Source: an uncultured Clostridia bacterium
GTDB taxonomy: Bacteria; Bacillota; Clostridia; Christensenellales; Pumilibacteraceae
DNA length: 64,000 bases
NCBI GenBank assembly: GCA_948440265.1
Contig: CAOJOK010000007.1
Location: 658 to 64,657 of the forward strand
Reading direction: 5' to 3'
In this document: positions 32,821 through 57,789 of the stretch, piece by piece
How the letters are laid out: each line of letters starts with the position of its first letter
Position numbering within the stretch: the stretch's first letter is position 1
Notes under the pieces: generated by a model
Databases searched by the model: none
Seen by the model: only the letters and a program-made list of their open reading frames with translations
What the model was told of the DNA's origin: nothing
Program-made: the position numbers and the translations under genes

Positions 32821-33107
32821 AAAGAAAGAGTTTGTAAGCGTTCTGATGCAGGGGATTTCTCCGCTTCGCACACTGACGTGTGCTTCGGTCGAAATGACAT
32901 TGGGAAAAGAAAAGCGCGCTTCGGTCGAAATGGTTTGACAGAGCGCGCTTCAAAAGAATAGTGCGTGAAAAGTATAGAGCGTCCTGACGGCATAGAAACG
33001 AGCAGTTCAAGGAAAGCAAGCATTTTCGAGCGGGAGCGTACTTCTTGTACGTGACCCGAGAAAATGCGCCGCTTGACGCCGAAATGCGACGTTTATATGC
33101 CGTCAGG
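32821..33107. repeat. Structured intergenic repeat, copy 1 (287 bp)
   Basis: 51-nt perfect match (32821-32871) to 57940-57990. The rest aligns with substitutions and indels. The right-hand 125 nt (32983-33107) are closed by a perfect 12-bp inverted repeat, CCTGACGGCATA/TATGCCGTCAGG. Its last bases overlap the oppF stop codon. Confidence 0.85.
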
Positions 33108-34095
33108 CGAGATGGCAGGCGACAAAATGTCCCCCACCCACATCCCTAAACTCCGGTTCAGACTCCTTGCAGACGTCGGTGCATTTATTGCAACGCGTAT
33201 GGAATTTACAGCCTTTCGGAGGATTGGCAGGCGACGGGATATCGCCTTTGAGAGTTATGCGGTTCATTTTTACATTCGGGTCCGGCATAGGCACGGCGGA
33301 GAGCAGGGCTTCCGTATACGGGTGCATAGGGTTTTTGAACAGCTCCCTTTTCGGCGCGAACTCCACCATATTGCCGAGATACATTACGCCGACGTCGTCG
33401 GAAATATGTTCCACGACCGACAAATCGTGCGAAATGAACACATAGGCAAGGTTGTTCTTTTCCTGCAAGTCCTTGAACAGATTTATTATCTGCGCCTGTA
33501 TGGACACGTCGAGCGCGGAAACGGGCTCGTCGCAAATCACGAGCTTGGGCTTTAATGCCAGCACTTTGGCAATGCAGATACGCTGACGCTGACCGCCCGA
33601 AAACTCGTGCGGATAGCGTTCGAAATAGTGCGTTTGAAGTCCGCACTTCTGCATTACGTCGTATATGTAGTCCTTATAGTCTTCTTTCGGGACTATCTTA
33701 TGCACTTTGACCGCTTCGCCTATTATCTCGCCGACGGGCAGTCTGGGTGACAGCGACGAATACGGGTCCTGAAATATCATTTGAAACTGCGGACGGAGTT
33801 TGCGAAGCGTCTCGCCTTTGAGCTTGGCAAGGTCCACTCCGTCGAAAAGTATCTTTCCGTCCGTGACGTCGGTAAGCCGCAGTATGGTTCTGCCCATTGT
33901 CGTTTTGCCGCAGCCGCTCTCCCCGACTATTCCTATGGTCTTTCCCGCTTCCAGCGAAAAGGATACGCCGTCTACGGCGCGCAGGTATTTGCGGTTTTCC
34001 TTTTTGAAAGCCTTGTTTATCAGAAAGTATTTTTTCAGATTCTCGACTTTGAGCAGGGGTTCTTTATTGATTGCGGTGTCTACAGAGTCGCTCAT
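33103..34095 (-). CDS. oppF: Oligopeptide/dipeptide ABC transporter ATP-binding protein
   Basis: 330 aa. Walker A GESGCGKTT, signature FSGGQRQR, Walker B LVICDEPVSALD, and the Opp-type C-terminal Cys-rich tail (CKFHTRC..C). Confidence 0.88.
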   Translation of the reverse strand: MSDSVDTAINKEPLLKVENLKKYFLINKAFKKENRKYLRAVDGVSFSLEAGKTIGIVGESGCGKTTMGRTILRLTDVTDGKILFDGVDLAKLKGETLRKLRPQFQMIFQDPYSSLSPRLPVGEIIGEAVKVHKIVPKEDYKDYIYDVMQKCGLQTHYFERYPHEFSGGQRQRICIAKVLALKPKLVICDEPVSALDVSIQAQIINLFKDLQEKNNLAYVFISHDLSVVEHISDDVGVMYLGNMVEFAPKRELFKNPMHPYTEALLSAVPMPDPNVKMNRITLKGDIPSPANPPKGCKFHTRCNKCTDVCKESEPEFRDVGGGHFVACHLA

Positions 34096-35360
34096 TTATT
34101 CTCTCCTTCCTTATACAGATAGCAAGCCACGCTGTGCGTATCCGATACCTTTATCATAGGCGGAAAGTCGCCCGTGCATTTTTCGCAACGGCGATTGCAC
34201 CTATCCGCGAAGTAGCAGGTGGACGGCATATTTATGGGGTTGGGGACGTTGCCCGGGATATTGTAAAGGCGGTCTACGTCCTTGCCGACTACGGGTTTGC
34301 TCTTTTGCAGTCCGACCGTGTAGGGGTGCAGAGGGTTGTCGAATATCTCCTGCACGGTGCCTTTCTCCACTATTCTGCCTGCGTACATTACCACCACATA
34401 GTCCACCATTTCCGCTATGACGCCCAAATCGTGCGTTATGAGCATTATGCTTCCGCTTATCTTATGCTTGACTTCGCGCAGTAAATCGAGTATCTGCGCC
34501 TGAATGGTGACGTCGAGCGCGGTGGTCGGCTCGTCCGCGATTATCAGCTTGGGGTTGCAGCACAGCGCCATTGCAATCATAACGCGCTGTCTCATACCGC
34601 CCGACAGTTCGTGCGGATAGGACTTATAAACGTGCTCCGGCATTGCTATGCCGACCAGCGACAGCATTTCTATGCTCTTTGCCTTTGCCTGTTCTTTGGT
34701 TGCGCCGTTGACGTGCAAGAGCGTCACTTCGTCGAGCTGGTAGCCGACCGTGAACACGGGGTTCAGGCTGGTCATAGGCTCTTGGAAAATCATTGCTATT
34801 TCCCGACCGCGTATGTGCGACATCTCCGACATCGGCAGTTTGGCTATGTCCAGCACTTCGTCGTGCTGTTCGTATTTATTCACCATTTTGGGCTTGCCCG
34901 ACTTTGTGAGCACAGTCTCTCTCGTCACGTTGCCGTCGGCGTCCGTGACCTCTCTCGTCATAGGCTCTTTGCCGACGAGTTTTCTGACATTGGAACGGAA
35001 GCGGATACTGCCGTCCACAATCTGCCCCATAGGCGCCTGTATGAGCCGCATAAGCGACATACTCGTGACCGACTTTCCGCAGCCGCTTTCTCCGACTATG
35101 CCGACGGTGGAGCCTTGCGGTATTTCGAAAGAAACGCCGTTGACTGCCTTGACCACGCCGCGGTCGGTGTAGAAATAAGTATGCAGGTTTTCGAACTCCA
35201 CGACGTTGTCGGGGTTTTTCATTTCCGTGACATAGTCGTCCCTTGTATACGCCTTATTGCGCTTATTCAGCTCCTTTATGGCTTTGGCGTTGTCTTTGGC
35301 GATTTGGTTGGACTCCTGTCCCGATATGTAATGTTTGTTCTTTTCTTTCTTCATAATCAC
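34092..35360 (-). CDS. oppD: Oligopeptide ABC transporter ATP-binding protein with N-terminal extension and internal insertion
   Basis: 422 aa. [29 protein letters not shown] and a C-terminal Cys cluster. About 45 extra aa lie between Walker A and IAMIFQEP. The start is GTG 35360 (GTGA overlap) or ATG 35354. Confidence 0.88.
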
Positions 35361-57674: not shown

Positions 57675-57759
57675 TATGGGTTTGTCCTTTCGTCCGAACG
57701 ACCTGCAATATCAATTTTTATCTATTAAAAAGCCGCTCCGAAAAATAGTAATTTGTTTT

Positions 57760-57789
57760 ATTGTACACTTTTTTCGGCAAAAATGTCAA
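57760..57789 (-). promoter_or_regulatory. Promoter of the giant-subtilase/Opp locus
   Basis: TTGACA (57789-57784), an 18-nt spacer, then TACAAT (57765-57760). This gives a leader of about 80 nt, with AAAGGA before ATG 57674. Confidence 0.5.

Follow-up and report, generated by a model that had tools for sequence, protein, structure and literature searches.

Does the dense one-strand locus between positions 57674 and 33103 of the DNA analysed here hold a giant S8 protease (subtilase) and an Opp-type importer merely as neighbours, or do the two form one unit for the use of extracellular protein? The stretch as a whole (the window) comprises 64,000 nucleotides (nt) of contig CAOJOK010000007.1 in assembly GCA_948440265.1, from an uncultured Clostridia bacterium. 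An earlier reading of the letters alone (the sequence-only reading) had proposed that protease and importer are a physically coupled unit, and comparison with relatives bears this out: the S8 gene adjoins the importer, on the same strand, in 52 of the 61 loci with full flanks. We consider it probable (at roughly 0.6) that the locus is transcribed as one unit and serves to acquire extracellular protein; in uncultured gut Clostridia it would probably supply nitrogen and amino acids. The pathway of proteinase plus Opp is known from lactic acid bacteria; what is new here is its hard-wiring into one conserved block.

We suggest the following course of events. The 2,524-amino-acid (aa) subtilase, tethered to the membrane by a C-terminal helix and standing off from the cell on a long stalk of leucine-rich repeats (LRR) and Ig-like domains, would cut proteins into oligopeptides at the cell surface; an enlarged lipoprotein binding protein of Opp/App type would capture the released peptides and pass them to OppBCDF, encoded immediately downstream. 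A 384-aa B-repeat/beta-helix lipoprotein and an 84-aa protein may be accessory components of capture and import, and two further lipoproteins, of 1539 and 866 aa, may be lineage-specific binding cargo.

Gene order, transcription signals and linkage across species

Genes and domains were called from a six-frame listing of open reading frames (ORFs) and from Pfam and NCBIfam scans of the window proteins. In the ORF listing, ten co-directional minus-strand genes span 57674 to 33103, with intergenic gaps (from the protease to oppF) of 3, 55, 95, 31, 14 and 83 nt, followed at the oppB/oppC junction by a 14-nt gap (taking ATG 37027 as the oppC start) or a 4-nt overlap (taking GTG 37045); the oppC/oppD and oppD/oppF junctions are both 4-nt overlaps. 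A promoter-like site on the minus strand (57760–57789; TTGACA, an 18-nt spacer and TACAAT, 11 of 12 positions matching) lies about 85 nt 5' of the protease start codon. This is the top-scoring site in 45000–59000 and the sole near-consensus one there, and the pattern scan gave zero matches inside any intergenic gap of the ten-gene locus. Upstream of the locus, a terminator at 58217–58188 (a 12-bp hairpin then T7, −17 kcal/mol, z −5.3) closes the preceding gene, which encodes a glycoside hydrolase family 3 (GH3) protein, and a scan for hairpins with a T-run found none in the internal gaps. The sequence-only reading had described the ten genes with the same extent, sizes and gaps, and had claimed one consensus-like promoter, no convincing internal terminator and a strong terminator upstream, all of which we reproduced. 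We infer that the ten genes are co-transcribed.

Within the locus, a hairpin lacking a U tract (38537–38583, minus strand) lies in the 83-nt gap that separates oppB from the binding-protein gene; it folds at −28.7 kcal/mol (z −3.1), and none of 200 shuffles folds as well. This gap is also the longest in relatives (median ~74 nt), and the hairpin is possibly an mRNA-stabilising or attenuating element that would raise the output of the binding protein relative to that of the permeases. A second, non-canonical GC hairpin lies around 42760–42790.

For the comparison with relatives, the best 80 of at least 522 binding-protein relatives in species-representative genomes were taken, and their ORFs were called and compared with the ten window proteins; the position of the S8 gene was counted in the 61 of these 80 loci that have at least 9 kb of upstream flank. 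A giant S8 gene stands directly upstream of the importer in 46 of the 61 and directly after oppF, on the same strand, in another six, and nine have no giant S8 gene within 10 kb. Since the protease may stand upstream or downstream of the importer, and always on the same strand, the linkage has survived rearrangement. The flanks differ by species (Fe-ADH; EamA, YhhN and GH77; the his operon and guaB-guaA; dgt-dnaG-rpoD here), and because these flanking genes are unrelated between species the conserved block is not a by-product of general synteny. This retention of the linkage through repeated rearrangement, amid scrambled neighbours, is the main evidence for a putative functional coupling. Median gaps in the relatives are ~18 nt between the S8 gene and the homologue of the 384-aa lipoprotein gene, and ~29 nt from there to the binding-protein gene.

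The binding-protein family has more than 4,249 database matches, nearly all of 850–910 aa. The best 80 relatives all come from uncultured gut or rumen Clostridia, their NCBI labels including Christensenellales, Christensenellaceae, ‘Christensenella sp.’, Candidatus Scatosoma and Firmicutes bacterium CAG:475, among others. The very same binding protein is encoded on 23 metagenomic contigs, where the gene order is unchanged, and a sister species (locus L091, ~80% identity) has the same ten-gene order. More distant metagenomic relatives, with 53–61% identity in the binding protein, carry in four cases out of four a giant protease with S8, PA, fn3_5 and LRR_5 domains, a ~370-aa lipoprotein, the binding protein and OppBCDF. 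Moreover, a single rabbit-gut metagenome-assembled genome, CANRFW01, holds the complete unit twice, in diverged form (L026 and L035; their binding proteins share 53% and 48% identity with the query), so that the whole module has been duplicated or acquired twice, a pattern that would be expected of a modular utilisation locus.

Predicted parts of the block

The giant surface subtilase (50100–57674, minus strand; 2524 aa), recognised by its Pfam and PDB sequence matches, consists in order of a signal peptide, an I9-like propeptide, the S8 domain with an inserted PA domain, fn3_5, Ig-like domains, LRR_5, Big_3, Flg_new, a transmembrane (TM) helix and a Lys-rich tail. Peptidase_S8 covers residues 206–709 (Pfam, 2.8e-41), with PA inserted at 527–587, and fn3_5 covers 747–866; the BspA-type LRR_5 repeats form eight stretches that take up ~1,000 aa. 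The active site is intact: the motifs VLDTG, HGTHVAG, AAGNE and GTSMASP give the triad plus oxyanion Asn as D215/H292/N404/S651, and the Asp, His, Ser and oxyanion Asn are kept in 54 of 54 linked protease orthologues. When compared with solved chains, the first 1,200 residues matched C5a peptidase (7edd, 1e-64), SpyCEP (5xyr, 6e-59) and 1xf1 (2e-52), with the alignment to solved C5a peptidase/SpyCEP covering residues 201–887, and chains named ‘cell envelope proteinase’ were matched as well. By its triad, PA insert and fn3_5 domain we assign the protease to the cell-envelope-proteinase/C5a-peptidase group (MEROPS S8A with PA insert). Its C-terminus is a hydrophobic helix followed by the Lys-rich tail; the LPXTG motif is absent from the protein, which scores 239 bits against the LPXTG-anchored SGO_0316 family of NCBIfam (cut-off 1400). 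The protease is predicted to work like a cell-envelope proteinase, tethered to the membrane and not to the wall. No maturase of PrtM/PrsA type was found, rotamase and PrsA domains being missing from all ten products in the Pfam scan.

The binding protein (38598–41270, minus strand; 890 aa) is a family-5 (cluster C) substrate-binding lipoprotein with an SBP_bac_5 domain. Its AlphaFold model (predicted local distance difference test score, pLDDT, 69) has a confidently predicted helical insertion of ~230 aa at residues ~170–400 in an otherwise ordinary cluster C fold. The best solved match of its profile is the nonapeptide binder AppA (1xoc, 1.4e-09), and in Foldseek the top match of the model is a Thermus oligopeptide binder, all neighbours being cluster C binding proteins. 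It reached no NCBIfam equivalog cut-off (Opp4A gave 90 bits, cut-off 650); the best NCBIfam matches of the importer parts are oligopeptide systems, namely Opp4A/B/C, OppD and DppF/OppF.

The four remaining importer genes follow on the same minus strand. The OppB-type permease (37042–38514; 490 aa; BPD_transp_1) has an insertion of ~170–190 aa between its first TM helix and the core, which aligns from residue ~228, and neither this insertion nor the helical one of the binding protein has a significant PDB sequence match. The OppC-type permease (35357–37045; 562 aa from GTG, or 556 aa from ATG 37027; BPD_transp_1 and OppC_N) begins with a predicted-cytoplasmic extension of ~230 aa (36355–37045) that is Lys/Thr/Ala-rich and of low complexity, with KTAAKK-like repeats. 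The composition of this tail recalls histone-H1-like basic tails. The OppD-type ATPase (34092–35360; 422 aa) has ABC_tran and oligo_HPY domains, the former carrying an insertion, and the OppF-type ATPase (33103–34095; 330 aa) has the same two domains and reaches the PRK11308 subfamily (413.7 bits, cut-off 408). The C-termini of OppD and OppF (34092–34230 and 33103–33250) are Cys-rich, with the endings ...SVAC in OppD and CKFHTRCNKCTDVC...FVAC in OppF; they resemble, we presume, the iron-sulfur-cluster-binding C-terminal regions of some OppD/OppF proteins. With all five components at hand, we classify the importer as a complete Opp/Dpp-type system (PepT family). The sequence-only reading had called it oversized, and this holds family-wide for the binding protein (843–951 aa) but not for the permeases: the OppB insertion is limited to the closer clade (460–560 aa, against ~330 aa elsewhere), and the long OppC tail to a few species, this one and its sister among them (556/562/565 aa in strains and 552 aa in the sister species, against 350–435 aa in most relatives).

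Lipoboxes are seen in all four lipoproteins, that is, in the 1539-, 866- and 384-aa products and in the binding protein. The 384-aa lipoprotein (41285–42439, minus strand) matches Flg_new and Pectate_lyase_5 in Pfam, and its model (pLDDT 91.5) has two domains like InlB B-repeats and, at the C-terminus, one that resembles a beta-helix. A fold search with it returned only InlB B-repeats and other binding modules, with no enzyme-like match and no peptidyl-prolyl isomerase fold, so that no sign of an enzymatic role was found. A profile search found its homologue directly 5' of the binding-protein gene in 75 of the 80 loci; as the contig of each of the other five begins at this gene or within it, the partner is present in 75 of 75 testable cases.

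The 84-aa protein (42471–42725, minus strand) is a small tail-anchored membrane protein, basic in its N-terminal part and with one helix at the C-terminus, which ends in LWLH. We prefer this reading to a 100-aa alternative because its ATG has a ribosome-binding site, because the alternative ATG (42773) falls inside the GC hairpin, and because the gene call in the sister species is likewise 84 aa. The protein has no match in Pfam or NCBIfam. Iterative searches found its family in 39 of the 62 loci that have oppF and sequence beyond it, every time on the operon strand, mostly right after oppF and sometimes right before the protease, and before the 384-aa gene here and in L011. The family has motifs such as DxLDTETTFADMNVEGFxWYNP and RKEYWAMVRGAF, after which comes a C-terminal helix with YLWL at its end; across the library it counts 89 cluster representatives at E≤0.001, nearly all of 65–140 aa. 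On the strength of these matches we assign the 84-aa protein to a conserved family, as yet without a name, that goes with this importer.

The two largest lipoproteins behave differently. Homologues of the 1539-aa lipoprotein (45477–50096, minus strand; Flg_new and LRR_5) were found at the same position only in the sister species and in L011, L014 and L050, and those of the 866-aa lipoprotein (42821–45421, minus strand; N-terminal Listeria-Bacteroides repeats) only in L091 and L092 and, in part, L014. After oppF, 24 of the 58 testable relatives have instead a Flg_new/Glug protein of ~1,340–1,440 aa, which is unrelated. We therefore class the 1539- and 866-aa proteins, by their distribution, as putative lineage-specific, variable cargo and not as conserved members of the locus.

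In these respects the sequence-only reading needs revision. It had counted the 1539- and 866-aa LRR/Flg_new lipoproteins as members of the unit, whereas they are confined to the closest relatives, and it had treated the 384- and 84-aa proteins as incidental, whereas these are the conserved accessories. Its domain calls were largely right for the protease (S8, PA and LRR), the binding protein, OppBCDF and the 1539-aa protein (LRR and Flg_new), but the GLUG domain that it gave to the 384-aa protein was not reproduced. The Flg_new repeats that it saw in the 866-aa protein gave no Pfam match at E≤0.01, although the TIGR02543 (List_Bact_rpt) cut-off is reached and a precomputed Flg_new match exists.

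Protein acquisition weighed against other readings

Known systems offer partial parallels. The PrtP (lactocepin) and Opp of lactic acid bacteria share with the present locus a surface-tethered S8 protease with PA insert and Fn3-like domains and a five-component Opp importer with a lipoprotein binder. PrtP and Opp cooperate in lactococci too, but there prtP/prtM forms a unit distinct from opp, which typically lies by the lac operon on plasmids (PMC6458302), whereas here the two form one block that is conserved across species. The protease of this locus differs further from PrtP in its predicted C-terminal TM-helix anchor in place of LPXTG, in the lack of a PrtM/PrsA-type maturase gene and in its ~1,000 aa of BspA-type LRR, and the importer differs from the Opp of lactic acid bacteria in a binding protein that is ~350 aa longer and in two extra conserved small genes. 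Cell-envelope proteinases carry either an LPXTG sortase signal or, in some lactobacilli, an S-layer-type anchor, and an adjacent PrtM is a feature of the lactococcal type only. The streptococcal C5a peptidase (ScpA/ScpB) and SpyCEP have the same order of S8, PA and Fn3 and are the best solved relatives of residues ~200–890, yet they are sortase-anchored, host-factor-specific and not encoded with an importer.

With the polysaccharide utilisation loci of Gram-positive bacteria the locus shares the co-localisation of a surface depolymerase, binding lipoproteins and a dedicated importer, as well as modularity and duplication in at least one genome (L026/L035); it differs from them in its probable substrate class, which would be protein, and in having neither a SusC/SusD pair nor a regulator gene. 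The enlarged Opp of Mollicutes (models of JCVI-syn MMSYN1_0165-0168) likewise has insertions in OppB and OppD relative to the E. coli proteins, and the present OppD aligns with the long mycoplasma OppD model NF043079 across its insertion (2.8e-97); the scores here are, however, far under the equivalog cut-offs, and the OppB insertion is without a detectable solved homologue.

Several observations weigh against protein acquisition as the function of the locus. The nine loci without a giant S8 gene (~15% of the 61), which belong to a Scatosoma-type clade, keep the lipoprotein, the binding protein, OppBCDF and the small protein, so that the importer can work without a linked protease. Nickel (NikZ), sialic-acid, EDTA and chitin binders score in Foldseek similarly to the peptide binders, and the model that was searched has a pLDDT of 69; since peptide and non-peptide cluster C binders are thus nearly equal, it is we who infer the importer's ligand class and peptide specificity. 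Among the characterised relatives of the protease are host-factor-specific enzymes (C5a peptidase, SpyCEP) alongside nutritional ones. Also, the locus encodes neither a regulator nor an intracellular peptidase: no DNA-binding domain or regulator was found among the ten products (Pfam, NCBIfam) or in the gene lists of the relatives. The best match to a CodY box in the window, ATTTTTCTGAACATT at 57661–57675 with 2 mismatches, overlaps the protease start codon, and a CodY-box-like site with ≤2 mismatches stands upstream of the protease in just 3 of 57 relatives and is thus not conserved; given this count, the site may reflect coding sequence.

These points leave room for other explanations. The locus could be a co-regulated surface operon without substrate hand-off, in which protease and large lipoproteins serve colonisation or interaction with a host, by adhesion or, in the manner of C5a peptidase and SpyCEP, by cutting immune or mucosal proteins of the host, and Opp is a general importer that shares the promoter. 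The closest solved relatives of the protease are indeed streptococcal virulence proteases, adhesins typically carry domains such as BspA-type LRR_5, Big and InlB B-repeats, adhesion is promoted by PrtP itself (PMC6458302), and some lineages have the importer core without a linked protease. We nevertheless regard this explanation as unlikely, since the linkage of protease and importer was kept through rearrangement across dozens of species while the other neighbours changed, which is hard to explain without a functional dependence, and since the adhesin-like 1539- and 866-aa proteins are precisely the parts that are not conserved. 

An importer of a non-peptide ligand (an oligosaccharide, metal chelate or opine), with a protease unrelated to transport, seems distinctly less credible still. 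Family-5 binders of sugar, nickel, sialic acid and opine exist and such fold neighbours score similarly, the binding protein lies under all NCBIfam equivalog cut-offs, and a GH3 gene stands just upstream in this genome; yet the conserved block holds a protease and no glycoside hydrolase, and the best solved profile match (AppA) and the best family matches point to oligopeptides. The sequence-only reading had itself raised sugar import, on account of nearby GH3 and GH95 genes: the GH3 gene is there, but GH95 was not found in any ORF scanned, and the case is weakened because the flanks differ completely between relatives, GH3 being missing from theirs, and because the strong terminator cuts the GH3 gene off from the locus. 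Least credible of all, and in our view very improbable, is a peptide-signalling unit in which the protease matures a secreted pro-peptide that Opp re-imports, as in the RRNPP-type quorum sensing of Firmicutes. Opp systems import signalling peptides in many Firmicutes, and a small conserved ORF, that of the 84-aa protein, accompanies the importer; but the 84-aa protein is basic and tail-anchored, with its conserved motifs N-terminal, and so is no secreted pro-peptide, the locus encodes no cytoplasmic receptor or regulator, and a protease of 2,500 aa, studded with LRR, is far too large a tool for the maturation of a pheromone.

Protein acquisition thus remains the reading that we prefer, and a stronger form of it may be put forward tentatively, although we rather doubt it: protease, 384-aa lipoprotein, binding protein and 84-aa protein might assemble with OppBCDF into a physical surface machine, a Gram-positive ‘protein utilisome’, whose protein–protein contacts would channel peptides without their diffusing away. 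If so, the 384- and 84-aa proteins would be hitherto overlooked subunits in a lineage of ABC importers that many uncultured gut Clostridia possess.

Gut protein fermentation is mostly credited to Bacteroidota and a few proteolytic clostridia, and to our knowledge its genetic basis in the uncultured Christensenellales-like fraction is essentially unannotated. A full-text literature search within a limited collection found no protease–Opp operon described for these bacteria, nor the term ‘protein utilization locus’ applied in such a sense. Should its nutritional role hold, the block of S8 protease, small lipoprotein, ~870-aa binding protein and OppBCDF would mark proteolytic, peptide-feeding lifestyles in metagenomes and would be a natural example, for protein, of the enzyme–transporter hard-wiring seen in glycan utilisation loci. 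Very large LRR/Flg_new surface proteins dominate these genomes, and one class of them would thereby gain a role; two new small proteins, strictly or frequently linked to the importer, would have a directly testable function.

Flanking repeats and other features of the window

The locus is bracketed exactly by two copies of a non-coding repeat. One copy, of ~290 nt (32813–33107, minus strand; −63 kcal/mol, z −8.2), begins at the oppF stop codon and probably marks where the transcript ends; it comprises a palindromic module of ~130 nt (32976–33107) and a second module. The other, a direct copy (57932–58187, minus strand; −50.8 kcal/mol, z −5.3), lies between the GH3 terminator and the locus promoter, and the second modules of the two are 94% identical over 62 nt. 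Several metagenomic contigs of ~24.4–24.9 kb end at these flanking repeats. We considered the copies as attachment sites of a mobile 25-kb cassette and rejected this: they are 76–94% alike, and the sister species (L091, 19367–19907) has two tandem palindromic modules after oppF, with the second module missing. The repeat core had no match in a scan of JGI metagenomes, and the exact patterns searched were found in no locus beyond this species and its sister. Given the tandem modules in the sister species, the repeat is probably a lineage-specific interspersed palindromic element, similar to miniature inverted-repeat transposable elements or repetitive extragenic palindromes, and not a pair of attachment sites.

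Elsewhere in the window, two full-length sigma-70 genes of RpoD type stand in tandem downstream of dnaG (27462–28577 and 28601–29857), with blocks of 73%–93% nucleotide identity; they are a recent duplication of the housekeeping sigma factor. The region ~12000–20800 has a G+C content of 34–44%, against ~52% elsewhere, carries genes for an AraC-type regulator, an APH-type kinase and an alpha/beta-hydrolase, and adjoins two tRNA-Leu genes (20768–20850 and 20967–21052). A 43-nt unit, made up of a terminator hairpin and a stretch that overlaps the end of tRNA-Leu(aag) (20768–20785), occurs at 17231–17273, 20579–20621 and 20743–20785, and a 154-nt tandem duplication lies at 20444–20762; the region looks like one or two islands integrated at a tRNA gene.

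A second large peptidase of the window, an 881-aa Peptidase_M28 protein (2493–5138), is unlinked to the locus. The GH3 protein upstream of the locus (58244–61513; 1089 aa) is permuted, its Glyco_hydro_3_C and Fn3-like part (94–565) preceding the Glyco_hydro_3 N-terminal domain (810–975). Beyond it, a 641-aa ORF without a Pfam match (62054–63979) contains four tandem repeats with a period of 219–228 nt (~73–76 aa).

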